From the IMG/VR virus record IMGVR_UViG_2548876947_000004: DNA of 64,000 nt. One strand, 5' to 3'. Within the stretch, counting starts at the first letter, position 1. Each line of letters begins with the position of its first letter. Shown in pieces: positions 2,778 through 62,580 of the stretch. The position numbers were made by a program, and so were the translations under genes. The notes beneath the pieces were generated by a model. That model made no database searches. It saw only the letters and a program-made list of their open reading frames with translations, and had not been told where the DNA came from. The stretch comes from a virus. Its lineage: Duplodnaviria; Heunggongvirae; Uroviricota; Caudoviricetes.

Positions 2778-4207
2778 TCCTCCTCATACGAAATATTAAA
2801 GGTGGAGTTTTCTGTATCCAGATAAACGAAATCGTAAAAGCCGTTGGACTCATTCCACTCGACAAATTCCAGATAAAAGTCGCGGAAATAACCCAGCGTT
2901 TCGATAAACGCCCAAACGTCTTTTTTCTTAATCAGGATGTACTTCCCGACGCGGTTCGGATCAAAGAAAGTTGAGTCGCGCCCAAATTTTGTTTCCAGCG
3001 CCGACTTCAGCTCATCGGTCACATTCTCAATGGTCAGGCTTGCCGATATCCGTCCGGTGATGGTTATCTTAAATGGTAGTTTTCTGACCTCTTTATACGA
3101 GAATTTCTTGTTCAACTCATTCGGCACCTTCTTAAAGGCAGCCAGGATCATTTCTTCAAGCTCTGACTGGCTTTTATTTGGATGCCACCCTGAAATAAAT
3201 ATCTTATTGATATTCCGAACATTATAAGCACCATCTAATTTCTCTTGCCGGCCTTCGCCCCATGCCTTTACCCAGGACAGTCCCGGGATGTTACGCACCA
3301 GAAAATACGTATAGTCCCCGCCCCATACGACCTGATCATCATAGGCAAGGTAATATTGTGCACGGTTACGTGTGATCTCCGTTGTTTCGGCATCGGTACC
3401 TGCGGTTATAGGTGTCGTTGTCTTAACTGAAATCATATTAGCTAAATTAGCCGCAGAATCGACAGGCGTCAGGTTTTGGCCAGCAACCAGGGTTATATCG
3501 CCGTTGGTGCACCATACCTTAAGCGTAATGGTCGAGCCTTCTGGCGGTATTTGCCCAATTAGCCCATCACCGAATCGAACCCCCAACTGCTCGGATGGTT
3601 TATAAAACTCAACGTAGACCTGGCTTTTACTACCGGCTAACCGGAACATAGTGCTGGAAGACCACTGCGTGGTCTTACCATCGGTCGTCACGAATACTTC
3701 CAGCTTATAGCAGACAGCAGTGAGAGCCTTTGATAACACGACTTCCAGAAATTCTTTGGCTGCCGTAACGGTATATGTCACCTCCTGGATTTCCAACTGT
3801 GCCACTTCTACCGTACCGGTGCCGTCAACCAACCTGCATACATCCATAGTCATGTAAGGATACTGGTCGTCAGATATTAAAGGCATGTTTTTGGGGATTA
3901 CCGCTGGGGCATCTTCACTTGTGGCGGTGATCTCAATCATCCCCGATGACGGTGTTGGCTTGGTACCAACGTAACTATTCGTTTCTGCCGCTGCCAGGAT
4001 AGAAGAACGCCGCGTCGCGGTCGATATAAAGCCTTCAGCCAGCGCCGCATCGGCATACTGAAAGCACCTGTAGACAATCTGGGTAATAAACAATGTCAGC
4101 ATCGAGACAAATTGAGAGCCGACAAACTTCGACCAGAATGAATCTTTCTCGACAAGCTCTTCAAACTCTGCACGAATACTGTCTTTAGTAGGTGTTGTTT
4201 TACTCAT
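2774..4207 (-). CDS. Baseplate structural protein (477 aa)
   Basis: Long ORF, 4-nt overlaps with both neighbours; position between small baseplate protein and fibre genes. Confidence 0.4.
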   Translation of the reverse strand: MSKTTPTKDSIRAEFEELVEKDSFWSKFVGSQFVSMLTLFITQIVYRCFQYADAALAEGFISTATRRSSILAAAETNSYVGTKPTPSSGMIEITATSEDAPAVIPKNMPLISDDQYPYMTMDVCRLVDGTGTVEVAQLEIQEVTYTVTAAKEFLEVVLSKALTAVCYKLEVFVTTDGKTTQWSSSTMFRLAGSKSQVYVEFYKPSEQLGVRFGDGLIGQIPPEGSTITLKVWCTNGDITLVAGQNLTPVDSAANLANMISVKTTTPITAGTDAETTEITRNRAQYYLAYDDQVVWGGDYTYFLVRNIPGLSWVKAWGEGRQEKLDGAYNVRNINKIFISGWHPNKSQSELEEMILAAFKKVPNELNKKFSYKEVRKLPFKITITGRISASLTIENVTDELKSALETKFGRDSTFFDPNRVGKYILIKKKDVWAFIETLGYFRDFYLEFVEWNESNGFYDFVYLDTENSTFNISYEEE

Positions 4208-10172: not shown

Positions 10173-10302
10173 TTAACCGATTCTACGAGTTGTCATTTGT
10201 TACCGGTCAGTCTACACATTTCAGATACTACGTTAAAACAACTCAAGTGCTTCAAGTAGCACATCGTCATCAACATCCAGCCCCAAGGTACGGAGATAAA
10301 AT

Positions 10303-11487
10303 TCAAGCCTTAAGAGGCTTTGTGTATGTTCGTGTAATCCATCCAGTAATAAACTCGTCCCCTGATTTAACCTGCACGAAAAGCCATTGGCGATCTTTTT
10401 TATCTAAAATAGCAACAATTGTGTTTTTGCCAATGCATTCAATCACTTCACTGTTTAAAGAAGGACTGACATGTAATCTTACGTTATCACCAGTTATAAA
10501 CCTAAAACCATTGAGATCTTCCCACTTAATTTCTGTGTTTTCTTTAATTAATTTTTGTTTTGATATTGGTGTATCCTCATATAGGGATACAGAATATGAT
10601 TCTGTCTTGTGTATTTGCGATAAGATTTGTTCTTTTGCATAATCAGCAATGGCACCAAGCACCACTTCTGTTAAAAACCACATAATAATAAACTGAAGCG
10701 GGTGAGGGAGCGCCTTAAATGAGTCAATAAACGTCGAACTGGATTTATTTAATCCTTTGTTTTGAACATCACTTTCGTTGTGAGATGTTTCAATAGCACC
10801 TTCAACATAATCCTGAGCAATTGTTGATAGACCTTGCTCCATTATTTGATGAAATGAAGCATTTTGTTCTTGAATATGTTTATTTAATAATTCTTTTATT
10901 TCATTGTTTGAATCTATCTTGTGAGTTACATTTTGCCGCAGGTACTTTAGTATCTCCTGCACGTTATTTAAACCAGCTTGCTTATTAAGCATATCGGACT
11001 GGTTTCGTAACGACATAGAAACTCTTACCTGCCTCCTTAGCATTTTGTATATATTTGCATCATGAGGGGGGTAAGCCTTGTTCAGTTTCTGTAAAATTTC
11101 AATATGGTTGCGATACTCATTGCCTACTTCTGCCAAAATCGACCTACTCGAAAACTGTTTTCGAATGTAATCACGAATTAAGGCCGGTGTATTCAACCTT
11201 GCAATTTGCTCTTGAGCATAGCGTCCTATTCCTAACTGTTTTTGCAATATTTCTACATGCTCTTTATACGATGGAATCTTGCCTACGTTTTTTTGCAGTT
11301 TCGCTAACTGTTTAGCCAAATTATTAGAAGCATATTCTGATTTTAATAAATCACTTACCGATTTGTATTCTGGTGTTTTTATTTTATTTAAATAATCACG
11401 CAAAATAATATTTGCATCTTTATTATAAAGCTCGCTTACTGAGCCAAGAGCAAGTTTTTTAATGTCCTTCACTTTATTCACCGTCAT
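10303..11487 (-). CDS. Lys/Asn-rich protein with one hydrophobic segment and C-terminal SH3-like domain (394 aa); cassette gene 3
   Basis: ORF in markedly AT-rich DNA (a hand-counted 60-nt sample is ~32% GC); hydrophobic stretch LQFIIMWFLTEVVLGAIA; C-terminal ...GFRFITGDNVRLHVSPS...WLFVQVKSGDEFITGWITRTY resembles bacterial SH3 domains. Start overlaps upstream gene by 14 nt. Confidence 0.5.
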   Translation of the reverse strand: MTVNKVKDIKKLALGSVSELYNKDANIILRDYLNKIKTPEYKSVSDLLKSEYASNNLAKQLAKLQKNVGKIPSYKEHVEILQKQLGIGRYAQEQIARLNTPALIRDYIRKQFSSRSILAEVGNEYRNHIEILQKLNKAYPPHDANIYKMLRRQVRVSMSLRNQSDMLNKQAGLNNVQEILKYLRQNVTHKIDSNNEIKELLNKHIQEQNASFHQIMEQGLSTIAQDYVEGAIETSHNESDVQNKGLNKSSSTFIDSFKALPHPLQFIIMWFLTEVVLGAIADYAKEQILSQIHKTESYSVSLYEDTPISKQKLIKENTEIKWEDLNGFRFITGDNVRLHVSPSLNSEVIECIGKNTIVAILDKKDRQWLFVQVKSGDEFITGWITRTYTKPLKA

Positions 11488-11980
11488 CTTGCTTTAAGCA
11501 CCCATCATTTTTAGCTTCCTTGTAAATACTTGAAATGCCATCAAGAGAGAATGATGTAATTCGACGCGCTCCGATGTATACATCCATGTTTTTTTCTTTT
11601 GTGTCTGATGCTGACTTCCAAAAAGAATACCATTCCCGACGATTAGGAGCAGTGTTTTGCGTGCCAATATTAAAGCCATCCTGACCAACAATTAAGGTAA
11701 TTACATTAGCTTTACGAGAAATTGTGTCGCGTGTAGAAAAATCAGCATTCTCTTTCCCTCCGCTTACATACAAATGTCTTCCAGCGATATGATCTTCGGA
11801 ACCTTCCCTTGCTCCAGCATCACAAGAAAAGTTAATTGTATAACCATCGTCATTGGTTGCAGAGATTTCTCTCCACCCTTGCTCACCTCCTACCGTCCAA
11901 ACGGTAGAACCTGCCATTGCTGATAATGGCAGAAAAGAGGACATTAATAAAAAGCTATACAATGACTTATACAATTTCAT
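11474..11980 (-). CDS. Secreted protein with Sec-type signal peptide (168 aa); cassette gene 2
   Basis: N-terminus MKLYKSLYSFLLMSSFLPLSAMA|GSTV is a classical signal peptide; AT-rich codon usage. Confidence 0.5.
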   Translation of the reverse strand: MKLYKSLYSFLLMSSFLPLSAMAGSTVWTVGGEQGWREISATNDDGYTINFSCDAGAREGSEDHIAGRHLYVSGGKENADFSTRDTISRKANVITLIVGQDGFNIGTQNTAPNRREWYSFWKSASDTKEKNMDVYIGARRITSFSLDGISSIYKEAKNDGCLKQDDGE

Positions 11981-12068
11981 ATTTTTATCCTTTTGGTTTC
12001 AGATATTATAGGCATAGTCCATATTGTTAGGTCCACTATGCCCAGAGAATTTAATATTATTCATTAAA

Positions 12069-12560
12069 TTATGGAGCTACACCCGGCCCCCTGGCTCGTT
12101 CTTCAAGCGTACCCTGCACGCTTTGATGGCGCATTCCCGGGGCATTTCTGATTGAGTCAATGCCATTTCTTCCAACATCTTCTTTATTCACGGCATTGCT
12201 CGCCACCAGCACACCCCAGCTAGGGATAGCAAAATCAGGAGCGGTTTCGCATGCCTTTACCATATAATCAAAAGTGCTTCGATTGATCTCGTTCGCGTCC
12301 GGATTTAACAGGCGAGAATATTGATATTTAGCATTTTCGTTGGTTGCGACTTTATACAGTTCTTGCTGCACCATCGCTTCAGAAAGTTTAAGGCGTTTCA
12401 TGTCTGAAAGTAACTTCTTGCGCATGGATTCGTCTTGGCTGACAGCAAAGCCGTAAACGTGCCCAAGGTATTTCGTGTAGTCGGTACAAATATCCTTTAC
12501 GCTTGATGCTGCATTAACAGTCCCAGCCATAAATAATAACGGTAGTAATAGTTTTCTCAT
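12069..12560 (-). CDS. Secreted protein with signal peptide (163 aa from the Met with an SD); cassette gene 1
   Basis: Start chosen at internal Met preceded by AGGTGAGG; MRKLLLPLLFMAGTVNA|ASS signal peptide. C-terminal 22 aa (GMRHQSVQGTLEERARGPG) resemble an internal motif of Sit. Confidence 0.5.
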   Translation of the reverse strand: MRKLLLPLLFMAGTVNAASSVKDICTDYTKYLGHVYGFAVSQDESMRKKLLSDMKRLKLSEAMVQQELYKVATNENAKYQYSRLLNPDANEINRSTFDYMVKACETAPDFAIPSWGVLVASNAVNKEDVGRNGIDSIRNAPGMRHQSVQGTLEERARGPGVAP

Positions 12561-14402: not shown

Positions 14403-15203
14403 ATGCAACAAACATTCAATGCGGATATGAATATATCAAACCTTCATCAAAATGTCGATCCTTCAACCACTCTGCCCGTTATTTGTGGTGTTGAAATTAC
14501 GACCGACCGCGCTGGCCGTTACAACCTTAATGCTCTACACAGAGCGAGCGGACTCGGTGCCCATAAAGCGCCAGCTCAATGGCTAAGAACGCTGTCAGCT
14601 AAACAGCTCATCGAAGAGCTTGAAAAAGAAACTATGCAGAATTGCATAGTTTCGTTCGAAGGCCGTGGCGGCGGCACTTTTGCCCATGAATTGCTCGCAG
14701 TGGAGTACGCTGGTTGGATTTCTCCCGCGTTTCGGCTGAAGGTAAACCAGACATTTATCGACTATCGAGCTGGAAGATTACAACCTGCTATTCCGAAGAG
14801 CCTCCCAGAAGCTCTCCGTTTGGCTGCCGACCTGGCAGAGCAAAAGCAACGGCTGGAGCAAAAAATGCTGATGGATGCACCTAAAGTCGAATTCGCCGAA
14901 CGCGTTGCTACCGCCAGCGGGGTTCTAATCGGCAACTATGCCAAAGTGCTCGGCCTGGGCCAAAACTATCTCTTCACCTGGTTGCGTGATAACGGAATTC
15001 TGATCGCAACCGGTGAACGCAGGAACGTCCCCAAACAAGAATACATATCCCGTGGGTATTTCACCCTTAAAGAAACCGTGATCGATACAAGCAATGGAAG
15101 CAGGATTTCTTTCACGACTCGTATAACCGGCAAAGGTCAGCAGTGGCTGATGAAGCGATTGCTTGATGCTGGTGTGCTGGTACCTGTCGCGGCAACGCGC
15201 TAA
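14403..15203 (+). CDS. kilA: KilA (KilA-N-like N-terminus fused to antirepressor C-terminal domain, 266 aa)
   Basis: C-terminal domain paralogous to Ant (...IPKSLPEALRLAADLAEQK...GKGQQWLMKRLLDAGVL); position upstream of repL. Confidence 0.6.
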   Translation: MQQTFNADMNISNLHQNVDPSTTLPVICGVEITTDRAGRYNLNALHRASGLGAHKAPAQWLRTLSAKQLIEELEKETMQNCIVSFEGRGGGTFAHELLAVEYAGWISPAFRLKVNQTFIDYRAGRLQPAIPKSLPEALRLAADLAEQKQRLEQKMLMDAPKVEFAERVATASGVLIGNYAKVLGLGQNYLFTWLRDNGILIATGERRNVPKQEYISRGYFTLKETVIDTSNGSRISFTTRITGKGQQWLMKRLLDAGVLVPVAATR

Positions 15204-15232: not shown

Positions 15233-16078
15233 ATGCTGGCTAAAGTCACTTTCCTGAGCTGTATAACGATGAGCGATTTTACTTTTTCTGGCTATGAATT
15301 GGCCTGCTTTGTAACACACTCCGGTCTATCCCGTAGCGCCGGGCATATCCTGTCGCAATGTGCAAATCTCGCGGCAACAACCAGTGAATACTTCATTCAC
15401 AAGCCTCACCGCCTGATCGCGGCAGAAACTGGTTATAGCCAATCAACCGTCGTTCGTGCATTCCGTGAAGCTGTAAACAAAGGAATCCTGTCAGTAGAGA
15501 TTGTTATCGGCGATCACCGTGAACGTCGCGCTAACCTGTACCGGTTTACACCATCCTTTTTGGCCTTCGCACAACAAGCAAAAAATGCGCTGATTGAAAG
15601 CAAATTAAAGATCTCTTCAGCGGCAACCAAGGTTAAAGCTGTTCTCGCTAATACATTGGCTTTATTTGATTTTTTATCCACCCCCCCATGTCAAAATGAT
15701 ACCCCCTCCCCCTGTCAGGATGACGTGGCAATAAAGAATAAGAAGTCACAAATTAAAAAAACAAAAAGATCAGTTTCCGGCGGTGCCGGAACGACCAGGC
15801 TCAAAAATTTGACTTCCTGGATCGCTGAGGCAAAAGCAAAGGCTGACAATCTGCGGTTATCCAAAAAACGCGCTCAAAAACATGAGTTCAAGCAGAAAGT
15901 AGAGGCGGCAGCGCGGAAATATGCTTACCTGAAGGACAAGCGTTCTCCTGATATTGGCGGGATATCAAACTTCGATAATCTGCCGCATTGCATGACGGTA
16001 AACGAAGCTCTTAATGCGGTTTTAGCCAAAAATAAAGATAACGAACAATGGGGTATACCGGCAGGATTCAGAGGGTGA
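15233..16078 (+). CDS. repL: Lytic replicon initiator RepL (281 aa)
   Basis: 281-aa ORF downstream of kilA under a C1 operator, matching the P1 L-replicon arrangement; a lytic origin inside the gene is expected from P1 biology but not verified here. Confidence 0.65.
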   Translation: MLAKVTFLSCITMSDFTFSGYELACFVTHSGLSRSAGHILSQCANLAATTSEYFIHKPHRLIAAETGYSQSTVVRAFREAVNKGILSVEIVIGDHRERRANLYRFTPSFLAFAQQAKNALIESKLKISSAATKVKAVLANTLALFDFLSTPPCQNDTPSPCQDDVAIKNKKSQIKKTKRSVSGGAGTTRLKNLTSWIAEAKAKADNLRLSKKRAQKHEFKQKVEAAARKYAYLKDKRSPDIGGISNFDNLPHCMTVNEALNAVLAKNKDNEQWGIPAGFRG

Positions 16079-16128
16079 TAGATTGCTCTAATCTGGAGTC
16101 ACCTGGCGTTTTCAGTTTGAGGTCGGAG

Positions 16129-16374
16129 ATGCAATCTGATTTTTTACAGTTAGCGATCGCTTTTGCAGGATATGTTTGTATTGGCTTCTGTGTATACATG
16201 ATCAGCCGAAAAATGCTTGTCGATATCGACCGCAAAGAACGAACAGAGGAGATCTTAGTATGGATTTTCTTTGGCGCGGTCTGGCCATTAGGGATCATGT
16301 TTGCTGCAACATTTCTTCTGATGTGGATATTCACCCTTCCAGGTGATTTCTATAGAAAAAAAGCCAGACATTGA
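16129..16374 (+). CDS. Small membrane protein (81 aa from Met with SD)
   Basis: Start at ATG preceded by GAGGTCGGAG; two hydrophobic segments. Confidence 0.35.
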   Translation: MQSDFLQLAIAFAGYVCIGFCVYMISRKMLVDIDRKERTEEILVWIFFGAVWPLGIMFAATFLLMWIFTLPGDFYRKKARH

Positions 16375-16497
16375 TACAATCGTTGCGGGTGCTTGAGGCT
16401 ATCTGCTTCAGGCATTACCCGAAAAGCAGATAGAAGAAAGCCCCAGATAACATTACGCGTCCTGCAAGACGCTTAACATTAATCTGAGGCCATATCT

Positions 16498-16704
16498 ATG
16501 CTTAGCATACGTAGATTAGCCTCTTACCGACCAAAAGGTCAAGGAGAAGCAGGCTATGAAGCAGCAAAAAGCGATGTTAATCGCTCTGATCGTCATCTGT
16601 TTAACCGTCATTGTGACGGCACTGGTAACGAGGAAAGACCTCTGCGAGGTACGAATCCGAACCGGCCAGACGGAGGTCACTGTCTTCACAGCCTACGAAT
16701 CTGA
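16498..16704 (+). CDS. mok-like overlapping reading frame of the hok locus
   Basis: 68-aa ORF overlapping the hok-like gene in another frame, as in hok/mok/sok loci. Confidence 0.3.
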   Translation: MLSIRRLASYRPKGQGEAGYEAAKSDVNRSDRHLFNRHCDGTGNEERPLRGTNPNRPDGGHCLHSLRI

Positions 16705-16711
16705 AAGGTAA
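16556..16711 (+). CDS. hok: Hok/Gef-family type I toxin (51 aa)
   Basis: MKQQKAMLIALIVICLTVIVTALVTRKDLCEVRIRTGQTEVTVFTAYESER is near-identical in pattern to the Hok/Gef (HokC) family; SD AAGGAG upstream; GC hairpin ggcgggga-gaga-tccccgcc at 16719-16738 typical of the hok mRNA 3' fold. Confidence 0.75.
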   Translation: MKQQKAMLIALIVICLTVIVTALVTRKDLCEVRIRTGQTEVTVFTAYESER

Positions 16712-16785
16712 GAGACCTGGCGGGGAGAGATCCCCGCCACTCTTCGTGTGTCAGGTATCCTCAATGCACCCTTTCCTCTCCAAAT

Positions 16786-16812
16786 AAAAAAGCTCCCGAA
16801 GGAGCTTTAAAA
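16786..16812. terminator. Bidirectional intrinsic terminator
   Basis: agctcc-cgaa-ggagct hairpin flanked by A-run upstream and T-run downstream, between convergent hok and structural genes. Confidence 0.55.
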
Positions 16813-16827
16813 TACAAGGGATGACTC

Positions 16828-29623: not shown

Positions 29624-32600
29624 AAGAGCTGTGCTATGGATCTGTTTGCAGTGGAATTGAAGCTGCGAGTATTGCTTGGGAACCTTTGGGTATGCGTCCG
29701 GCCTGGTTTGCTGAAATTGAGCCTTTTCCATCTGCCGTTCTTGCGCACCGTTGGCCTCATGTCGCCAATCTTGGCGACATGACAAAACTTGCCAAAAAAG
29801 TCCTGGCAGGGGAAATCGAATCCCCTGATGTGCTGGTGGGAGGGACACCATGTTTTGCCGCGGGCCATATGGTTCTTTGTAAAAATGGTTATAAACCAAT
29901 AGAAGATGTTTGCCCAGGCGATTACGTAGTCAGTCATCTCGGGCGGTTACAACAAGTAAAAAGAGTTGGTTCAAAAATAGCTAATACGGGGTTACTTAAT
30001 GCCGTTGGGCAGCCTTTAGGTATAAGAACAACCAATGACCATCCCTTCCTGGCGGTTCGGTGGAAAGCCCAAAACACCCGGAAAAATGGCACATATTTTA
30101 AGAGAGAGTTGTTGTCTGAACCGGAATGGCGAGCAGCATGTGATATGCCGGGATATCAATGGTGTGCTCTAACTAATTTCAATATTGCATCTCCAGATAT
30201 TTGTTCTCGGTTCTTGTCTGAAGAACAGGCTATGTATCTTGCGGGCGCTTATGTTGGCGATGGATATATTAGGAGATGGAGAGGTAAATCTAAGAAGGCG
30301 GTTGTTTTTGGCATAAATTGCCAGAAATTGAGAAAGTTTCATTGCCGCATACCAGAAAACATATTTTCCGTGGCAAGCGAAATCCGAGGGAGCATCAAAG
30401 TAACCTTGAATGATACGTGTTATGCCAATTGGCTTAATGAACATTTTGGCGAGTTAAGCCATGCTAAGCGTATCCCTGCATGGGTGATGTCGCATCCATT
30501 GCGTCATGTGTTTTTACAAGGCTATCTTGATACTGATGGGACACCAAGTGGTAAAGCGGGATTTAGAATTAATAGTGTTAGTCCTGCGCTTGCTTGGGGC
30601 GTTGCGGAGTTGTCACAGACTTGTGGTTATGTTTCTTCGGTCAGCTTTATTGAAGTTGAGCCCAAAAAAGTGATTGAGGATCGCGTGGTAAATCAACGGA
30701 ATTATTATCAGGTAACAATCTGCCCGCAGAAATTGTCACGTAAATCAAGATTGGCTCATGGAATGCTTTTACGAACAGTCAAAGAGTTTAAATCGGTAGG
30801 CCTAGATACTGTATACAACATAGAAGTCGAAGGTGATCATTCCTATATCCTCAATGGTGCGGTGGTCCATAACTGTCAGGCATTCAGTATCGCTGGATTA
30901 CGTGGTGGGCTTGATGATGAGCGTGGCGCGCTAACTTTAAAGTATGTGGAGCTTGCAAATGCAATTGACGACAAACGGGCTGAGTCATTTCTCAAACCAG
31001 CCGTTATCGTCTGGGAAAATGTCCCAGGAGTCTTGTCATCGGCAGATAACGCCTTCGGATGTTTCCTTGCCGGATTGGCTGGAGAAGATGCGCCATTCGA
31101 ACCAGGTGATCGACCTGAATCAGGAAAAAGTAACGCGTTCTGGCGGTGGGATGTCAAAACCGGTTGCCATGCTCCAAAGTGGCCGCAGTGTGGTTGTATT
31201 TATGGACCGCAGCGAAAAGTGGCCTGGAGAATCCTTGATGCCCAATACTTCGGAGTGGCACAACGACGCCGACGCGTGTTTGTTGTCGCAAGTGCTCGAA
31301 CAGACCTCGATCCCGCAACGGTACTTTTTGAGTTCGAAGGCGTGCGCCGGAATATTGCGCCGAGCCGAAAAAAGAAGGAAATCGCTTCCGCCATTATTGC
31401 AAATGGCGCTGCAATCAGTGGCGAAAGCCTAAATCCATGCCTACACGCTGACATGCCACCCGGTATGAAATCGACGAAAGCCGTAAACGCTTTCAGGATG
31501 GCAGCATTTGGGGAATATATTGACGATGAAACCGCATCGACAGTAAAGGCAAGAGATTTTAAAAATGCCACTGATCTTGCCGTTTTTAGCAGCACAGGAG
31601 CAGGTTTTTGGTCAGAAGGGCATGGTACATTGCGGGCACGTGAGCAAGAAAGCCATGAGCATCTTGTTACATTGGCTTTTCCTGAGCGTATAAGCGGTAC
31701 ACAACATGCTGCAACTAAGAATACTTCACCATCTCTAATGGCTAAAAATCCAACAGCTGTTTGCTATGAAGTAAGAAACGCAGAAGTAGCTGTCCGCCGT
31801 CTTACCCCTGTCGAATGTGAAAGGCTGCAAGGTTTTCCTGATGGGCATACGTTGATCCCTACGGAAAAGCGTAAAAAAGTTAATTCAGATGAACTGGCAT
31901 ATCTTCGCAATCACTATCCAGATTTAAGCGAAGAAGAGGCCGCGATGCTTGCAGCTGACGGACCGCGTTACAAAGCGATCGGCAATAGTATGGCGATACC
32001 AGTAATGTGCTGGATTGGCGATCGGATTACTAAGGCCGTATGCCGGCAGAAAGAAGGAAGTGAAACAAAAGAGCGAAAAGTTAAACCAGCGGCAGAATTC
32101 GAACGGTCCATATTCAAATGGGCTGGTGGAAAATTTGGTGTTCTGGAACAAATCTTTCGCTATTTGCCAGAAGGGAAGCGCCTGATTGAACCTTTCGTTG
32201 GTGGCGGAGCTGTCTTCATGAATGCCGGATACCAGGAAAATCTGCTAAATGATGTGAATGCTGACCTGATTAACTTTTACAAGACTCTGCAACGCGAGGC
32301 GCATTCACTTATCACTCTGGCACATCGTTTCTTCCTGGACTACAACACCCAGGAGGGATTCCTGGCAGTACGGAATGCGTTTAACAAACAAGTCTATGAT
32401 GATTTACATCGCGCAGCGGCGTTTTTGTTCCTGAACCGACATTGTTTTAATGGATTGACGCGCTACAACCAGGCCGGTGAGTTCAATGTCGGTTATGGGA
32501 AGTATAAAACTCCGTATTTCCCATTACAGGAGATGGAAGCCTTCCTCGGTGCGGAAGGGCGGTCTGAGTTTGTATGCGGTGATTTTGCAGCAGTGATTGA

Positions 32601-51392: not shown

Positions 51393-52687
51393 TCACTATT
51401 ACCAAAGAGCGACTACTGACAATCAAGCAGTGGCGCGAAACATACGGACCTGGTAGCAACGTTGTACTGCCAGCAGAAGAAGCGGAAGAACTGGCACGAA
51501 TTGCTCTGGCATCGCTGGAAGCAGAACCAGTTGCTTATATTTTCAAACATCCGGCCGGGAAATTATTCTGGGCTTTAACGGATGAAAGCAATAAAGAGCA
51601 ACCGGACGTTATTCCTGTTTATGCTGACTCACCTGCGCCGGTTGTGCCGGATGAAATAGACGTAAACGATGTACCAAGGGCGGTGACATATTTCAAGACA
51701 CACAGAGATTGTTACGCAGATGGCTGGAACGCCTGCCGCGCCGCCATGCTTCAGTCCGGAAACTTTCGGGAAAACAAGAATTCGTCAACCAATAATTTTC
51801 GGGAAATCGCGGAAACGTCAACCAACTATCCGGTAATTCCTAGTGAGGTGTTGTCCGCAATCCTGAAGGTTGCCAAGATTCGTGCCGATTTCGATGATTT
51901 TGACGGTGACAGGCGAGGTATCGGTGATTGTCTGGATGAGGCTGAGCAAGAGCTTATCGTTACCATTAACAAATATGCCAGTCAGTTGGCAGCAGAACCG
52001 ATAGCGACTAATGACGTTCGAGAGCAAACAGCCGTTCCGCCAGTTCCTGTAATACAGGCTGATGTCGCGCAGGCAATTGAAAAACTCAAACGGAAATTAG
52101 TGGAATGCAATCGCTATAACTACTGCGCAGATGCAGTTAAGGGCGTTGAGTATGCCTGCCACGCTGCCATGCTTCAGGGTAGCCAACCTGTAAGCCAAAG
52201 TAAGACTTACAGGTTGGATTTTGGGCAATGGCTGGAACAGCAACGCGGGAAAATCGATGTGGACTGTGGTTGTGTGTCCACTGAAACATTCATGCACTGG
52301 CTGCGGGTAGCTTACGAGGCTGGCAACTATCCGGATATTCCGGATAGTTCGGTGCCAGCGCCAGGAAAGGGCGTCACCGGTGAACGTATCCGCATTAAGC
52401 CGCATGTTTATCGCGAACTGGTTAACCGTCTCCACGATACAGCGATCAAGTGTGCTGGCACCCAGCAATTACGAGAAAGAATTAGCCGTGTTTTGGGCGA
52501 CGTTATTACGCCATATCATCATAAACAAGCCGAGAAAAGCGGTCTGGAAAGGTGTCATCTTGAGGCAGCATTAAACATTAAGCCGGGGCATACGCTTGGC
52601 ATTATTGATGCACTGTTGGTTCATAAGATGGCCAGGGCTTTATTGTCGTTGGTGGACGCTGGTGATACAAGCGAGGGTGAAGTATGA
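51389..52687 (+). CDS. Hypothetical protein with internal duplicated motif (432 aa)
   Basis: CYADGWNACRAAMLQSG and NYCADAVKGVEYACHAAMLQGS are repeated motifs within one ORF. Confidence 0.45.
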   Translation: MITITKERLLTIKQWRETYGPGSNVVLPAEEAEELARIALASLEAEPVAYIFKHPAGKLFWALTDESNKEQPDVIPVYADSPAPVVPDEIDVNDVPRAVTYFKTHRDCYADGWNACRAAMLQSGNFRENKNSSTNNFREIAETSTNYPVIPSEVLSAILKVAKIRADFDDFDGDRRGIGDCLDEAEQELIVTINKYASQLAAEPIATNDVREQTAVPPVPVIQADVAQAIEKLKRKLVECNRYNYCADAVKGVEYACHAAMLQGSQPVSQSKTYRLDFGQWLEQQRGKIDVDCGCVSTETFMHWLRVAYEAGNYPDIPDSSVPAPGKGVTGERIRIKPHVYRELVNRLHDTAIKCAGTQQLRERISRVLGDVITPYHHKQAEKSGLERCHLEAALNIKPGHTLGIIDALLVHKMARALLSLVDAGDTSEGEV

Positions 52688-53046
52688 GAGTTGCAGATCA
52701 CATCAAACACCTTGAAAGAATTATCGAAAACGGTGAACTCTTAAGAGATCAGATGAGACGCACGGCAGAAGCCAGGGAGGCGATAATCCGCAGTCAGGCT
52801 GGTAAATTAAAGCAATTGTCAGAGATTAACACGCTATACAAGAACAGATGTAACCGGGCGGTGATGCGGCTTCAGAAAGCACGTAATGAAATTAAATTGG
52901 TGGAGGCAAAACTGAAAAAACAGATCCAGCGTTACGATCAGCAAGATGCTTTTTATGCCGCCATCAAGGCGGCTGCTAATGAAATAGGCATCTGGAAGTT
53001 GCTGGTGGAGAAAGCAAAGACGAAGTTAAATGCCAACGAAAGCTGA
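52684..53046 (+). CDS. Coiled-coil protein (120 aa), last gene of the plus-strand operon
   Basis: ORF overlapping the upstream stop; highly charged heptad pattern. Confidence 0.45.
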   Translation: MRVADHIKHLERIIENGELLRDQMRRTAEAREAIIRSQAGKLKQLSEINTLYKNRCNRAVMRLQKARNEIKLVEAKLKKQIQRYDQQDAFYAAIKAAANEIGIWKLLVEKAKTKLNANES

Positions 53047-53121
53047 ACTACAGGTGCCCACCAGCACATACAGAAAATGATTGTTTCCACATCAAGGAGA
53101 TTTTAATGTTTCACTGAAACA

Positions 53122-53259
53122 TTAAGTAAGCCAGTGCATAATTCCATTTTTTACTGACCTTAAAAGCAAAATCAAAACGATGATGAGGATAATAGCCAGA
53201 ATCTGGCTAATAATAGGCGCATCTAAAAATGCACTCAGGAACTGAAAAAAAGCGTTCAT
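53122..53259 (-). CDS. Small hydrophobic peptide (45 aa)
   Basis: MNAFFQFLSAFLDAPIISQILAIILIIVLILLLRSVKNGIMHWLT preceded by AAGGAA; not in the ORF track (<60 aa). Confidence 0.3.
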   Translation of the reverse strand: MNAFFQFLSAFLDAPIISQILAIILIIVLILLLRSVKNGIMHWLT

Positions 53260-54247
53260 TCAGGTGGTTCCTTGTCAAATGTAAAGGTGCACTTGCTCAC
53301 GTTGACGTAGAAACCCAACCCCTATATAGTTGGATTCGGTGAATGAAAGTCGTTAACGTGAGCTTACGGCACATGTTTTCGGAAAAACATCAGGGAACGG
53401 CTAATTCCTTGATGCGGGTGGGGTCTGTAATGCAGACCCTATCTATTAACGTCATGATTGCATCTCAAATTTTCTCCTTATCTTCAATTAATCTACATTC
53501 ATTTCATCTGTTAGCCACCACAATATGTAGAAAATGGCCCTCTTGCAAGTGCATAACTTTGTGGATAACTCAGGAAGGAAAAAGTGGCTTTCGCGCACCT
53601 TCGGTCAGACAAGGTGTCCGGGAAAGTCAACGCAAAGAAAAAAATTGTTAAAAATAACGTTTGTTGGAATTGTATATTTTTACCCCCTTCAATGGTTAGC
53701 ATTCTATTAACATCTTTTTTTAGAGACAGAAAAACATATCGTAACAACATATATACAGTATTAAGAGGCGAGTATTATCCTGCGGTGGGAATTCTGGGCG
53801 CTGTTAGATTCGACTTTCTCAGCAGGATTACATCGTCAACTTGCGACGTTGCCGTATGACTTTCGTGTAATAGGTGACAATGATGCGGCTAGTGAGTTAC
53901 TTGTGAAGTTTTTCGGAAAAGGTTTTGTGGCCTCGGATCTTGATGAGCTACAGCAACATGAAGTGTCTAATTTGATTTTTAGCCATAGCCAATAAGCCTC
54001 CCTCCTCCATCAAGGCCACAATTTGTGACCTTAAACAATTTTTTTTCTGCTTTTTCTTATTTGAGGAAATAACGTTGTTGACAGCTAATAGGCTCGTTGT
54101 TGTTATACATGCCTGTATAGATTATGACCGTAAATTATTAGCGGATTTTAAGCCATATTCACCGTTGTAGAAATTACTCATGTTCCATTCATTAGGAAGT
54201 TCTTTTCTGTCCAATGTATAGTGGCGCACGATATAACGATCTTCATC

Positions 54248-54478
54248 TTATTCGATGGACAGGCGGACATAGCCAATGTGAATCACCGATACGGGCGGTG
54301 TTCGTATTGCATAGATGTCGCGGAGATATACCGGCAGCTCGACAAATGCATCAGGTGCATCTGTGATGCTCGTTTTTTCACAGTATTCATATAACGCATC
54401 GTTGATATCGTTAAGAGATTCATGATCGTATATTTCCAGGTAATTACCGCGATCGCGATGGTACTCGATTTTAGCCAT
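54248..54478 (-). CDS. Hypothetical small protein (76 aa)
   Basis: ORF immediately downstream of and contiguous with the 194-aa gene. Confidence 0.4.
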   Translation of the reverse strand: MAKIEYHRDRGNYLEIYDHESLNDINDALYEYCEKTSITDAPDAFVELPVYLRDIYAIRTPPVSVIHIGYVRLSIE

Positions 54479-55063
54479 TCAAAATCCCCTGTTATCGTTT
54501 TGCATTTCTCTAATCCGGTTCAGAACTACTTCGTGCTGGACTTGGATAGCGGCTTTTTCGTTTTCAAGCCGGGCAATAGACATCTCTAATTCTTTGCTGT
54601 ACCAGGCGAGCTGGGCTAGGTTCATCCGGTTGTGGTCGAGAGTTGGAGACACTTCGACGCGATCCCTTTCTTCCTGCTTTAATGAGAAGAGATTCATCTC
54701 ATCCATTGAGGAAAATTCAGCAACAATTTCTTGTTGATGATCCGGTCGCTGCGGCATCCTCGCCAGTATAAATGGCGGTTCTTTTGAAAACATGAATGTC
54801 GGTTCAGACCGTGTTTTTACCCAGCTTGCCTGCTGTCTTTCGGCAAGTTCACAGGCTTCATCATAGTTATCTGCCAAACAAAGCACGGATGGACGGTCCC
54901 ACGCCCCACCATTCAGACAATAAACTACAATTTTCCCGTCAGGTTGTGTAACCCCATATGGATGGTCCCACCAGGCGTCCAGCTGAGCTTTAGAGCGTTT
55001 CTCGTTAGGAGTGCAGTCAAAATTTTTGGGCAATACAGGATCGAGAGGAATGCGATTAGGCAT
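54479..55063 (-). CDS. Hypothetical protein with C-terminal coiled coil (194 aa)
   Basis: ORF divergent from the umuD-like gene. Confidence 0.45.
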   Translation of the reverse strand: MPNRIPLDPVLPKNFDCTPNEKRSKAQLDAWWDHPYGVTQPDGKIVVYCLNGGAWDRPSVLCLADNYDEACELAERQQASWVKTRSEPTFMFSKEPPFILARMPQRPDHQQEIVAEFSSMDEMNLFSLKQEERDRVEVSPTLDHNRMNLAQLAWYSKELEMSIARLENEKAAIQVQHEVVLNRIREMQNDNRGF

Positions 55064-55237
55064 AGCTAATTCCTTATTAACTGATTGGCAACGAGGTTAC
55101 GCTGATCCCGCGGTGATGAATAGTAGCAAAGAGCACAAAATCATCAGCGGTGGTTGATGTACGTAACGCGTTTGCACCAAAGGTGTCTCTTTAATGTATA
55201 CTGTATAAATGAACAGTATTATTGAGGTAAAAACGCT

Positions 55238-55627
55238 ATGGGCTTCCCTTCTCCTGCGGCGGATTATGTTGAAAGCCGAATTTCTCTTGATCAGCAACTA
55301 ATCAGGCATCCATCAGCAACCTACTTCATGCGGGCAGCTGATAGCCATCACCGTGAGGGAATATTGCAGGGTGCTTTGCTGGTGGTTGATTCCTCGCTTA
55401 CTCCGGTTGATGGTTCTCTGCTTGTGTGCGCTATGGAGGGTGAATATCGCATAAAGAGATACCGAAAGTATCCGCGCCAGCACCTGGAGGATTTAAGCAC
55501 CGGGAAGAAAGAGGCGTTACCAGTAGATGACGATGGTTACACGGGTAGTAATGCTGTTTTTGGTGTGATCACTCATGTCATCAATGATGCCCGGAGTGGG
55601 GAGTTTGATGATTGTCCGGTCATTTAA
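55238..55627 (+). CDS. humD: UmuD-like S24 peptidase-fold protein (129 aa)
   Basis: MGFPSPAADYVE...GALLVVDSS...VCAMEGEYRIKRY matches the UmuD/MucA family. Confidence 0.8.
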   Translation: MGFPSPAADYVESRISLDQQLIRHPSATYFMRAADSHHREGILQGALLVVDSSLTPVDGSLLVCAMEGEYRIKRYRKYPRQHLEDLSTGKKEALPVDDDGYTGSNAVFGVITHVINDARSGEFDDCPVI

Positions 55628-55699
55628 GCTGCAAAGTGCTGGTGCTTTATGCCTGTGAAGTTTATAATTGTGTACACATAACGAGTACACGAGGTGTTT

Positions 55700-55921
55700 A
55701 TGCAATCCATTAACTTCCGTACCGCGCGCGGCAACCTTTCTGAAGTGCTCAACAATGTTGAAGCCGGGGAAGAGGTTGAAATCACCCGCAGAGGCCGTGA
55801 GCCAGCAGTAATTGTCAGCAAGGCTACTTTCGAAGCCTACAAAAAAGCGGCGCTGGATGCTGAATTTGCATCCCTGTTTGACACCCTGGACTCCACCAAC
55901 AAGGAACTGGTTGACCGATAA
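55700..55921 (+). CDS. phd: Antitoxin Phd (73 aa)
   Basis: [73 protein letters not shown] matches my recollection of P1 Phd; SD GAGG upstream. Confidence 0.9.
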
Positions 55922-56301
55922 TGAGGCATATATCACCGGAAGAACTTATTGCGCTTCATGATGCGAATATAAACCGCTACGGCGGCCTGCCGGGAATGTC
56001 AGATCCGGGTAGGGCAGAGGCCATTATCGGGAGAGTTCAGGCCAGAGTTGCCTACGAAGAGATCACCGACCTTTTCGAAGTCTCCGCCACCTACCTGGTG
56101 GCTACAGCGAGAGGGCATATATTCAATGATGCCAATAAGCGTACCGCGCTAAACAGTGCGCTGTTATTTCTACGCCGTAACGGGGTGCAGGTATTTGATT
56201 CACCTGAACTGGCAGACCTTACTGTAGGCGCTGCGACTGGCGAGATATCTGTATCTTCTGTCGCCGACACGTTACGTAGATTGTATGGTTCTGCGGAGTA
56301 G
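55921..56301 (+). CDS. doc: Toxin Doc (Fic-fold kinase, 126 aa)
   Basis: ATG overlaps the phd stop; Fic-type motif region [11 protein letters not shown]; 126 aa. Confidence 0.9.
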
Positions 56302-59376: not shown

Positions 59377-60860
59377 TGGCCAGAAGTTGCGTAACGGATC
59401 CTCGTTGGCGCGAGCTGGTGGCGCTATATCGTTATGACTGGATTGCTGCCGCTGATGTTTTGTTCGGCAAAACACCTACCTGGCAGCAGGATCTGATTAT
59501 TGAGTCTGTGCAGGAACAGGGTAGCAAGACATCTGTTTCGTCTGGTCACGGTACCGGGAAATCAGACATGACTTCTATCATGATCATGTTGTTCATAATC
59601 ATGTATCCCGGTGCCCGCGCCATTATCGTTGCGAACAAAATTCAGCAGGTAATGACCGGTATATTCAAGTACATCAAGATAAACTGGGCTACTGCCACCA
59701 GCCGTTTTCCATGGCTTGCTGATTATTTTGTTCTGACAGAAACCGCTTTCTATGAGGTTACTGGTAAAGGTGTATGGACTGTAGTACCGAAGGGCTTTCG
59801 TCTGGGAAGTGAAGAAGCTCTCGCCGGTGAACACGCAGATCATCTTCTGTATATTATCGATGAAGCCTCCGGTGTCAGTGATAGAGCTTTCGGTATCATC
59901 ACCGGTGCTCTTACCGGACAGGATAACCGCATCTTATTGCTGTCACAGCCTACACGCCCAAGCGGCTATTTCTACGATACTCACCATAAACTGGCCAAGC
60001 GTCCTGGTAACCCTGATGGCGTTTATACGGCGATCACGCTTAACAGTGAGGAATCACCGCTGGTAACGCCAGCATTTATCAAAATGAAGCTGGCGGAGTA
60101 CGGCGGGCGCGATAACCCTATGTACATGATTAAGGTACGCGGCCTATTCCCTAAATCACAGGATGGCTTCCTTCTTGGACGTGATGAGGTTGAACGTGCA
60201 ACGCGGCGGAAAGTCAAGATTGCCAAAGGATGGGGCTGGCTTGCATGTGTGGACGTTGCTGGTGGTACGGGAAGGGATAAGTCCGTTATCAATATCATGA
60301 TGGTGTCCGGCCAGCGAAACAAACGCCGTGTAATCAACTATCGAATGCTGGAATACACAGACGTTACAGAAACGCAGCTTGCCGCCAAAATTTTCGCAGA
60401 ATGTAATCCTGAGCGATTCCCCAATATCACCATAGCGATAGATGGCGATGGCCTGGGTAAAGCAACAGCGGATCTGATGTACGAGTATTATGGTATTACC
60501 GTACAGCGTATACGCTGGGGTAAAAAGATGCATAGCCGTGAAGATAAGAGCCTGTACTTTGATAAACGTGCTTATGCCAACGTTAAAGCCGCAGAGGCCG
60601 TAAAATCTGGTCGTATGAGACTGGATAAGGGTAATGAAACTATTGAGGAAGCGTCGAAAATCCCTGTAGGGATTAACTCCGCAGGTCAATGGAAGGTGAT
60701 GAGTAAGGAGGATATGAAGAAAAAACTCAACCTGCACTCACCAGACCATTGGGATACATATTGTTTCGCTATACTGGCGGATTATGTTCCCCAGGATGAA
60801 GTGCTTAGCGTCGAAGACGAAGCGCAGGTTGATGAAGCTCTGGCATGGCTTAATGAATGA
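59376..60860 (+). CDS. pacB: Terminase large subunit (494 aa)
   Basis: ATG overlaps the pacA stop; Walker-A-like SGHGTGKS; terminase-like acidic motifs. Confidence 0.8.
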
Positions 60861-60865
60861 ATATT

Positions 60866-60882
60866 TGCTCTAATAAATTGTG
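60866..60882 (+). promoter_or_regulatory. C1 operator upstream of the second c4-icd-ant-like module
   Basis: TTTGCTCTAATAAATTG, 15/17 match, 5 bp after the pacB stop. Confidence 0.65.
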
Positions 60883-61059
60883 TTTTTTAGCTGCCGATGT
60901 TACATTGAACCTGACCTCTTGCGCCTTGAGGCATTTTCGGTTTATGCTTATCAGGCACCTCATTAAAACGGGTGCCGGGATTGGCCTCCCGCTTAAGTCT
61001 AAGGCGATACAGACGCCGCTCGCGTCTTTTTTTTGTATCGGCGTACACGCACACCTCTA

Positions 61060-61140
61060 CAATGGTGGGCTGTATGGGGCTACCTTCGGGTAGGCTGGTT
61101 ACCTTGGACGCCAGTAAGGCCAACTCCGTACAGTCCACCG
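61060..61140 (+). ncRNA. c4-like antisense RNA, copy 2 (divergent sequence, same architecture)
   Basis: Closing stem ctgtatgg/ccgtacag around hairpins ctacc-ttcg-ggtag and ctgg-ttaccttggacg-ccag; loop ccttggacg is complementary (9 bp, one G-U) to cgtctaagg covering the SD of the downstream icd-like gene (61180-61188). Confidence 0.4.
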
Positions 61141-61199
61141 CCAGCAAGATTGGTCTCTTCTGCGGTGGTTACATACCAACGTCTAAGGAGGCTGCCAAT

Positions 61200-61421
61200 A
61201 TGGCTACTATCCCTACCCCAACTCATCCTGAATTTATCTGGCGCTTTTACTCCTGCCAAAAACGTCACTATCACTTCGTTATTGCACCAACAGAAGATGA
61301 GGCCCGCTCTCAGCTTCCTGACGCCCCATGTATTTTCTCTGCCCGTTTTTCCACTGATTCACGCAATTCTCTCAGTTACTGGTGCCTCCCTGTTAACGCT
61401 TCTGCTCAGGAGGGACTATGA
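61200..61421 (+). CDS. Icd-like small protein, copy 2 (73 aa)
   Basis: MATIPTPTHPEFIWRFYSCQKRHYHFVIAPTEDEARSQLPD... is paralogous to the 12986..13207 product; SD AAGGAGG. Confidence 0.55.
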   Translation: MATIPTPTHPEFIWRFYSCQKRHYHFVIAPTEDEARSQLPDAPCIFSARFSTDSRNSLSYWCLPVNASAQEGL

Positions 61422-62536: not shown

Positions 62537-62549
62537 TGGAAGAATGCCC

Positions 62550-62580
62550 GGTTGATGCCGGGCATAATTTATTGCGCGCT
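62550..62580. terminator. Bidirectional terminator between convergent antirepressor and c1
   Basis: atgcccgg-ttgatg-ccgggcat hairpin with A/T-rich flanks. Confidence 0.5.

Follow-up and report, generated by a model that had tools for sequence, protein, structure and literature searches.

A complete hok/sok cassette is carried as cargo in the variable repL-bplB slot of a P1-like phage-plasmid, where it would probably (we put this at roughly 80%) act as a PSK module that stabilizes the plasmid prophage alongside phd-doc. The window, meaning the whole stretch of 64,000 nucleotides that we analyzed, is a P1-like (Punavirus) phage-plasmid: most of it follows the same order as lab P1, it has the backbone genes kilA-repL, bplB-pmgG-21-22, and phd-doc in collinear arrangement, and both flanks of the slot are 96 to 99% identical to P1, P7, and P1-like records. 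At the level of sequence, every part of a type I toxin-antitoxin locus of the hok/sok kind can be recognized in it, and the window's copy is uninterrupted. We counted it in favor of the PSK reading that the element is a plasmid prophage already equipped with phd-doc and that the cassette has been retained in hundreds of plasmids. Counted against it were a poor hok -35 box, a cassette that lacks a terminator, a shortfall against the NCBIfam model NF007279, and relatives split by insertion sequences. The relevant parts of the backbone are the following.

14403-15203: kilA
15233-16078: repL
16093-16785: cargo segment of 693 bp, made up of a small membrane ORF and the hok/sok cassette (blastn breakpoints against NC_005856)
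16129-16374: small membrane ORF, 81 aa
16828-17337, minus strand: bplB, followed by pmgG and gene 21
55694-56301, plus strand: phd-doc type II addiction operon (phd, 55694-55921; doc, 55921-56301)

Homology to the reference P1 genome (NC_005856) ends at 16092 and restarts at 16786, and the 693-bp cargo segment replaces 1826 bp of that genome, namely rlfA-rlfB-pmgF and the rest of the operator Orlf. The left breakpoint lies within this C1 operator, which reads ATTGCTCTAATTATAAC in P1; the window retains only ATTGCTCTAAT, 11 bp at positions 16082-16092. The hok gene follows repL at a distance of ~300 bp on the same strand, with a weak terminator-like hairpin (16331-16346) between them. Neither RepL nor the 81-aa membrane ORF was assigned to a family by NCBIfam, and a B12D identity for a 108-aa reading of that ORF was disregarded, its Pfam score being below threshold.

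The preliminary description had taken P1 to be a phage without hok, and this is true of the reference type. The repL-bplB slot of NC_005856, which we examined, holds rlfA-rlfB-pmgF. A hok gene elsewhere in reference-type P1 was sought in OP279344.1, a complete rlfA-type P1 genome, and rejected: tblastn for hok found none (best E = 0.79), nor was there an nhmmer match at an E of ≤10 to a profile built from 26 hok loci, with the window itself as the positive control for these searches (1.6e-114). The phd-doc operon, previously placed at 55700-56301, is present at 55694-56301, where phd matches TIGR01552 (5.8e-13) and doc matches TIGR01550 (5.6e-39). The suggestion that this element combines type I and type II addiction modules thus stands, since both the hok/sok locus and phd-doc are there. 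The elements of the cassette and its right-hand border are as follows.

16353-16380, plus strand: predicted hok promoter (-35 TAGAAA, 16353-16358; 16-nt spacer; extended -10 TGaTACAAT, 16372-16380)
16387-16398, plus strand: tac element, hok mRNA 5' end, GGGTGCTTGAGG (start of the RF01794 match; pairs with fbi)
16399-16433, plus strand: leader hairpin (MFE helix of 16399-16408 with 16424-16433 in the full-length RNA)
16486-16489, plus strand: mok Shine-Dalgarno GAGG, 8 nt ahead of the mok ATG and within the Sok target
16498-16704, plus strand: mok frame, 68 codons, overlapping hok out of frame (from the ORF list)
~16506 to 16436, minus strand: predicted gene for the antisense RNA Sok, ~71 nt (sokW/sokC annotation transfer)
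16542 to 16513, minus strand: Sok promoter (-35 TTGACC, 16542-16537; 18-nt spacer; -10 TAATCT, 16518-16513)
16541-16546, plus strand: hok Shine-Dalgarno AAGGAG (read from the sequence; conserved in the 26-locus alignment)
16556-16711, plus strand: hok, 51 aa, with an N-terminal transmembrane helix followed by the conserved RKDLCEV motif
16718-16739, plus strand: GC-rich 3'-UTR hairpin, 9-bp stem 16718-16726/16731-16739 with a GAGA loop (MFE)
16759-16771, plus strand: fbi element CCTCAATGCACCC, complementary to tac; hok-locus homology ends at ~16771
16787-16810: backbone hairpin AAAGCTCC-cgaa-GGAGCTTT, found in identical form at the right junction in P1

The 51-aa peptide that had been quoted as a Hok/Gef toxin is encoded exactly at 16556-16711 on the plus strand. 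It matches Pfam HOK_GEF (PF01848) with an E value of 2.4e-22 and 78.7 bits (gathering cutoff, 22) over the whole model (profile positions 1-42 of 42), and PHROG 251, "MokW-like host killing," at 4.9e-32. The peptide consists of a hydrophobic transmembrane segment, MLIALIVICLTVIVTALV, and then a Cys-containing periplasmic segment, TRKDLCEVRIRTGQTEV; TRKDLCEV is invariant among 26 aligned Hok homologues. Over residues 1-50 it is ~96% identical to E. coli chromosomal HokD-type proteins (L010, L011, L013, and L016). The strong Shine-Dalgarno sequence claimed for hok is AAGGAG, 9 nt ahead of the ATG. Two narrower models fall short, the NCBIfam Hok-subfamily model NF007279 (49.5 bits, below its curated cutoff of 73) and the NCBIfam HokA equivalog (38.1 against a cutoff of 89). 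As Hok scores below the NF007279 cutoff, the name "HokD" that PGAP gives in related records must stem from another rule; the shortfall leaves Pfam-level membership in Hok/Gef untouched. The Hok family matches and the z-score of the mRNA fold given below are far beyond chance, and a chance small ORF is ruled out by the Pfam, PHROG, and Rfam matches together with the family-wide covariation.

Upstream, the overlapping mok-like frame of the preliminary description was recovered at 16498-16704, in a frame different from that of hok. Its start lines up with the annotated mokW and mokC starts, and GAGGC at its Shine-Dalgarno is kept in 26 of 26 aligned loci. In all 26 the mok frame extends at least as far as the hok start codon, an arrangement that suggests translational coupling. 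The frame itself varies: mok is in frame with hok in 17 loci, out of frame as a long ORF in 4 (the window's among them), and in 5 just 19 codons long, stopping at the hok ATG.

A sok-like antisense gene, which the preliminary description had proposed looking for, can be placed on the minus strand as a putative promoter (TTGACC-18-TAATCT) and a predicted RNA from 16506 to 16436, with a predicted fold of -32.9 kcal/mol (z = -5.7). This RNA would begin with a single-stranded 5' tail complementary to the mok ATG and Shine-Dalgarno and continue into a long terminator hairpin with a U-rich tail, the U-rich stretch 3' of the hairpin being GGGGCUUUCUUC. Curated annotations point to the same place: sokW of 933W maps to 16436-16506 and sokC of K-12 to 16430-16506 (minus strand), and transfer of sokW/mokW/hokW and sokC/mokC/hokC puts the Sok 5' end at 16506, mok at 16498, and hok at 16556-16711. 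A simple consensus promoter scan did not report the Sok promoter, whose -10 TAATCT has only 3 of 6 matches. We accept it despite this miss because of the mapped curated annotation and because it is conserved among the 26 loci, as TTGCC(T)/TTGACC and TAATCT/TAACCT.

The predicted hok promoter reached 9 of 12 matches plus the TG in the consensus scan, and its -10 is followed 7 nt later by the conserved 5' end of the mRNA (~16387). Its -35 (TAGAAA) is poor and lies outside the conserved cassette; since homology to other hok loci begins only at ~16375-16385, this box comes from the neighboring ORF. From 16387 to 16561 the plus strand matches Rfam RF01794 at 114.9 bits (gathering, 59; E = 6e-27). 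The family is named "sok," and the match is to the strand of the hok mRNA leader (the antisense strand gives 21 bits, at another position); it is thus evidence for the leader and not, in itself, for an antisense transcript.

Folding the full-length hok mRNA gave a predicted structure of -168.7 kcal/mol (z = -10.9 versus shuffled controls) with its 5' and 3' ends paired. In this MFE fold the pairing would be made by a 12-bp tac-fbi helix, 16387-16398 with 16759-16771. The leader hairpin carries ucb/dcb-like boxes, CTATCTGCTT and AAGCAGATAG, named by analogy rather than from an R1 alignment, and its helix is paired in 89.6% of cells across the aligned loci. When the RNA is truncated at its 3' side, the MFE fold has nt 1-34 at the 5' end form a hairpin of their own, which leaves the downstream box free. 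This in silico refolding is a thermodynamic prediction only, and it agrees with the activation switch known from R1.

The GC hairpin was taken in the preliminary description for the kind found at the 3' end of hok mRNAs. The hairpin is present as quoted (ggcgggga-gaga-tccccgcc, 16719-16738), and across the 26 loci 86% of the cells in its helix are paired, while 4 of its pairs show changes on both sides. A role as mRNA 3' end or terminator was rejected, since the RNA continues past it to fbi, 20 nt downstream, which is the partner of the 5' end; the hairpin is a conserved internal 3'-UTR element between the hok stop codon and fbi. In R1 the GC hairpin serves as an exonuclease stop, and here too it is the probable 3'-exonuclease stop that would set the end of the processed, active hok mRNA. 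The cassette itself has no terminator, as the right breakpoint falls immediately before the backbone hairpin that terminates bplB. That hairpin is a strong bplB terminator on the minus strand, the only strand on which the terminator scan reports it, and would be a weak candidate for a plus-strand hok mRNA terminator. The 3' end of the hok mRNA in this context is therefore uncertain.

Comparison across the family supports this architecture. A scan of one genome per species found 47 hok loci, whose homology to the window consistently covers ~16385-16771, beginning with the mRNA and ending with fbi. An alignment of 26 non-redundant loci, taken from Escherichia, Shigella, Kluyvera, Citrobacter, Photorhabdus, Erwinia, Kalamiella, and others, was used to count pairs for the window's own predicted MFE structure, with slid structures as controls. 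Cells were paired in 84.5% of cases for the whole structure (38 to 44% when slid) and in 87.5% for the tac-fbi helix (31 to 56% when slid), values that are inflated by taking the structure from the window's own fold. Compensatory changes are independent of that choice, and pairs changed on both sides numbered 43 for the whole structure (12 to 25 when slid) and 4 for the tac-fbi helix (0 to 3 when slid), in which one pair goes from U-A to C-G in 9 sequences. The fold of the hok mRNA is thus supported by covariation among 26 diverse loci, across which the mok Shine-Dalgarno and ATG, the hok Shine-Dalgarno, and the Sok promoter are all conserved as well.

The hok/sok system of R1 stabilizes plasmids (PMC7438911). 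Beyond the presence of the elements and the covariation of the structure, we infer the steps that follow from R1, as we infer transcription, RNA half-lives, processing, toxicity, and a stabilization phenotype for the window's copy. The weak constitutive promoter at 16353-16380 would give a stable full-length hok mRNA from ~16387, locked by pairing of fbi (16759-16771) with tac (16387-16398) such that it could be neither translated nor bound by Sok. Slow 3' trimming to the GC hairpin at 16718-16739 would remove fbi, whereupon the 5' end would refold and expose the mok start (Shine-Dalgarno, 16486-16489; ATG, 16498) and the Sok target. As long as a cell carries the plasmid, abundant but unstable Sok (~16506 to 16436, minus strand) would pair with the mok start region, block mok and hence coupled hok translation, and trigger RNase III cleavage. 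Once the plasmid is gone, Sok would decay first, the pool of processed hok mRNA would be translated, and the 51-aa Hok would depolarize the inner membrane, leaving the cell killed or arrested.

The same chain of events could have been selected for another reason, and we regard it as possible, although decidedly less likely than retention, that the cassette's selected role is defense of the lysogen against other phages by abortive infection or exclusion. An incoming phage that shuts off host transcription would let Sok decay, and Hok would damage the cell before the invader's cycle is complete. R1 hok/sok lowered the plating efficiency, burst size, and plaque size of T4, according to the account of Pecota and Wood (1996) in PMC7438911, although the effect described there was an incomplete one, obtained under induction and at multicopy. 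Integrated lambdoid, Stx, and Rac prophages, for which loss of a plasmid plays no part, have cassettes 86 to 91% identical to this one; the PHROGs category of the family is "moron, auxiliary metabolic gene and host takeover"; and defense or accessory cargo is common in P1-like variable slots (PMC9603915). Against this, the element is a low-copy plasmid, for which the benefit of PSK is obvious, and the mechanism is the same in both cases, which makes defense an added role and not an exclusive rival. Phage exclusion may possibly be part of what the cassette does, next to its proposed part in retention.

Counting PLSDB plasmid records at ≥80% coverage, we found the P1 backbone marker (bplB-pmgG) in 674, the hok cassette in 449, the repL-hok-bplB junction in at least 262, and the rlfA-rlfB-pmgF segment of P1 in 99. 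The junction also occurs in 234 of 5,426 complete E. coli genomes and, at 99% identity, in the phage records MH422554, MH445380/1, phi456, and Ro157c2YLVW. Its hok CDS is labeled "MokW" in MH422554, and the PGAP label is "type I toxin-antitoxin system toxin HokD." P1-like elements with "antibacterial toxin" ORFs in place of rlfA-rlfB-pmgF have been described (Venturini et al., PMC6906374), and rlfA-rlfB-pmgF is one of eight hypervariable regions, variable region 5 (Zhang et al. 2022, PMC9603915). Our search of the literature for hok/sok on P1-like elements found no functional study of the locus. The novelty implied by the preliminary description does not survive these counts: the feature is already known at the annotation level, as HokD or MokW, the hok layout is commoner than rlfAB among sequenced P1-like phage-plasmids, and it is lab P1 that is the outlier at this slot.

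Many relatives of the cassette are damaged. Among the 378 PLSDB records that carry either form, the hok 3' region is intact in 217, and a hok::IS junction, at which an IS186-family insertion parts hok from fbi, is found in 161. In RCS47 and 673R5 the toxin gene is gone and only the first ~145 bp of the cassette are kept. Taken together, the split copies and these losses indicate that intact function is not strongly maintained in the lineage.

Several observations concern the insertion site itself. The GC hairpin contains GGGG-N6-CCCC, an IS186 target, which is intact in the window. In pMCR-1-P3 a 1337-bp IS186/IS421-family element lies in the GC hairpin, flanked by a 10-bp duplication, GGAGAGATCC, that corresponds to 16724-16733; the direct repeat reported for IS186B in pSvP1 (PMC6906374) matches this duplication. 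IS186A abuts K-12 hokC at the same point of the GC hairpin. The breakpoint shared by RCS47 and 673R5, at 16518-16521, lies at the Sok -10.

It is on this damage that a less favorable view of the cassette could be built, in which it is a selfish or decaying passenger of little or no benefit that recombined into a hypervariable slot and persists by hitchhiking or through its own addiction effect. Besides the separation of hok from fbi in 161 of 378 records and the remnants in RCS47 and 673R5, IS186 likewise disrupts chromosomal hok loci of K-12 (PMC3562002), and the cargo of the slot is unrelated from one P1-like element to the next, being rlfAB-pmgF, an IS605-family transposase, or other ORFs (PMC9603915, PMC6906374). 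The window's copy, however, is complete in every element, and the cassette is ≥99% identical across hundreds of ~90- to 100-kb non-mobilizable plasmids from Escherichia, Salmonella, and Klebsiella, in a layout commoner than that of the reference. We therefore consider a mere passenger unlikely.

A functional meaning of the site beside the lytic replicon, whereby read-through from the induced, C1-repressed kilA-repL unit would yield 5'-extended hok transcripts or swamp Sok and Hok would aid host shutdown or lysis timing, is speculative and strikes us as very improbable: hok does lie ~300 bp 3' of repL on the same strand behind only the weak hairpin at 16331-16346, and the left breakpoint inside Orlf does keep the first 11 bp of that C1 operator (16082-16092), but the cassette comes with a promoter and recurs between conserved boundaries (16385-16771) in many unrelated contexts, a transcript extended at its 5' end should upset the switch that depends on tac rather than make use of it, and unrelated cargo in the same slot elsewhere makes a recombination hotspot the better explanation of the location.

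The P1-like element carries two independent addiction modules, as many large plasmids do, and the prophage should resist curing. With reference P1 atypical at this slot, conclusions on stability drawn from lab P1 may understate that of natural P1-like phage-plasmids, including carriers of mcr-1 or ESBL genes. A bolder proposal, which we think doubtful, is that hok/sok, and not phd-doc alone, is a major determinant of P1-like prophage retention or phage exclusion, with the GC hairpin acting as an IS186 landing pad that uncouples hok from the fbi lock. Were it true, the landing pad would give the lineage a means, often used, of turning the killer module on or off or of rewiring it, and classic lab P1, with its rlfAB layout, would be unrepresentative of P1-family stability and defense biology. 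The locus itself implies no new biology, and the main value of the present analysis lies in its correct annotation.

Among the closest known systems is hokW/mokW/sokW of Stx phage 933W, with 86.8% nucleotide identity over the whole cassette (16375-16771); hok of a Rac prophage reaches 91%. The order of elements is the same in 933W, whose sokW, mokW, and hokW map base for base to 16436-16506, 16498, and 16556-16711, and both loci have a ~20-nt extension of the Sok hairpin. The 933W copy lies on an integrated lambdoid prophage, whereas the window's lies on a plasmid prophage. The window also has an extra base in the hok Shine-Dalgarno region, which gives a better Sok -35 (TTGACC, compared to TTGCCT in 933W) and puts mok out of frame as a 68-codon ORF ending 7 nt before the hok stop, while mok of 933W is an in-frame N-terminal extension of Hok. 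The C termini of the toxins differ as well (TVFTAYESER in the window, AVFVDYESEK in 933W).

With R1 hok/sok (parB) the locus shares predicted tac/fbi end pairing, probable mok-hok translational coupling, a putative Sok over the mok start, and a GC hairpin after hok. The plasmid-maintenance context is common to both, and the window's leader fits the Rfam family built around such loci. The R1 DNA is too diverged from the window for blastn, and the R1 toxin, in the sequence that we take to be its own, has ~42% protein identity to the window's Hok (tblastn E = 5e-12). Processing, RNase III cleavage, and killing were shown experimentally for R1, whereas the window's copy is known from sequence alone.

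K-12 hokD (relF), from which PGAP takes its gene name here, encodes a toxin ~96% identical to the window's over residues 1-50. Homology of the L016 locus to the window starts only at 16542, just upstream of the CDS. We take L016, from its position and sequence, to be a relBEF-type hokD and thus a locus without the tac/mok/Sok leader, unlike the full regulatory apparatus in the window. "HokD" is, given this difference, a label of protein similarity that says nothing about locus organization. K-12 hokC/mokC/sokC (gef) is 75% identical over 16373-16734, and its curated coordinates transfer exactly; there IS186A abuts at the equivalent of 16734 and fbi is removed (PMC3562002), whereas the window's copy is uninterrupted. 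Reference P1 (NC_005856), finally, matches the flanks at 96 to 98% identity, through kilA-repL to 16092 and from 16786 through bplB-pmgG-gene 21, and carries phd-doc just as the window does.

Relative to P1, the left recombination breakpoint of the window falls within the C1 repressor operator Orlf (Op55; window 16082-16098), in which the first 11 bp (ATTGCTCTAAT) are retained and the last 6 are exchanged, reading CTGGAG versus TATAAC in P1. The cargo found in place of rlfA-rlfB-pmgF consists of hok and, as its other half, an accompanying ORF.

16129-16374, + strand: ORF of 81 aa, predicted to contain two hydrophobic segments and annotated by PGAP as "hypothetical protein"

This ORF matches PHROG 3772, a family of unknown function (E=1.2e-53), and its 3' end provides the hok -35 region. 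An alternative start at 16048 would give a 108-aa reading that overlaps the end of repL.

The arrangement of mok (window 16498-16704) relative to hok varied among the 26 non-redundant hok loci that we aligned (alignment columns 193 and 152-200). In 17 of the 26 loci mok is an in-frame N-terminal extension of hok, while four, the window among them, carry it as a long out-of-frame ORF and five as a 19-codon ORF with its stop at the hok ATG. The window differs from its closest relatives with in-frame mok by a single-base indel in the hok SD/Sok -35 region, and the Sok -35 reads TTGACC in loci with the extra base and TTGCCT in the others. The Sok terminator/target hairpin is extended by an insertion of ∼20 nt, ATTACGCGTCCTGCAAGACGC (window 16450-16472; alignment columns 104-123). 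This insertion was present in 9/26 loci, forming a clade of E. coli phage loci and HokD-like loci, and it was not found in the Photorhabdus loci, the Erwinia loci, or the Rfam consensus.

In two other P1-like phages, RCS47 and vB_EcoM-673R5, all that is left of the hok/sok cassette is its initial ∼145 bp, a remnant comprising the hok promoter, leader, and Sok-coding region.

16375-16521: remnant as aligned in the window
3348-3506: remnant in RCS47
2158-2319: remnant in vB_EcoM-673R5

Beyond a breakpoint at 16518-16521, at the Sok -10, both phages carry other cargo. Retention of this segment followed by other cargo suggests that their layouts derived from a hok-bearing ancestor, the toxin gene having since been lost.

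The cassette was also matched by short contigs from two non-enterobacterial assemblies.

L017, 275-bp contig: Acinetobacter idrijaensis
L029, 431-bp contig: Xanthomonas pisi

Both share 88-99.6% DNA identity with the cassette and are 100% identical to it over the Hok residues that they encode, and L017 also crosses the P1 backbone junction (window 16568-16815). They look like E. coli or P1-like DNA contaminating the two assemblies.

Elsewhere, megablast of the window against complete lab P1 (OP279344.1) returned no match of at least 400 bp in 10201-12445, 31365-31795, 48785-55477, or 60858-62570, and for this reason we read these four stretches as further variable or cargo regions.

The hok 3'-UTR hairpin (window 16718-16739), itself a conserved element, reads GGCGGGGA-GAGA-TCCCCGCC.

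IS186-family elements insert repeatedly in this hairpin, which is intact in the window. In pMCR-1-P3 (3345-4715) a 1337-bp IS lies inside it, flanked by a 10-bp duplication, GGAGAGATCC (TSD site at window 16724-16733), and the direct repeat reported for IS186B in pSvP1 is the same. Such insertion cuts hok off from its own fbi element. Among PLSDB records, 161 contained the hok::IS junction versus 217 with the intact form. Likewise, at hokC of K-12, IS186A abuts the locus at the position equivalent to the insertion site in the window hairpin.
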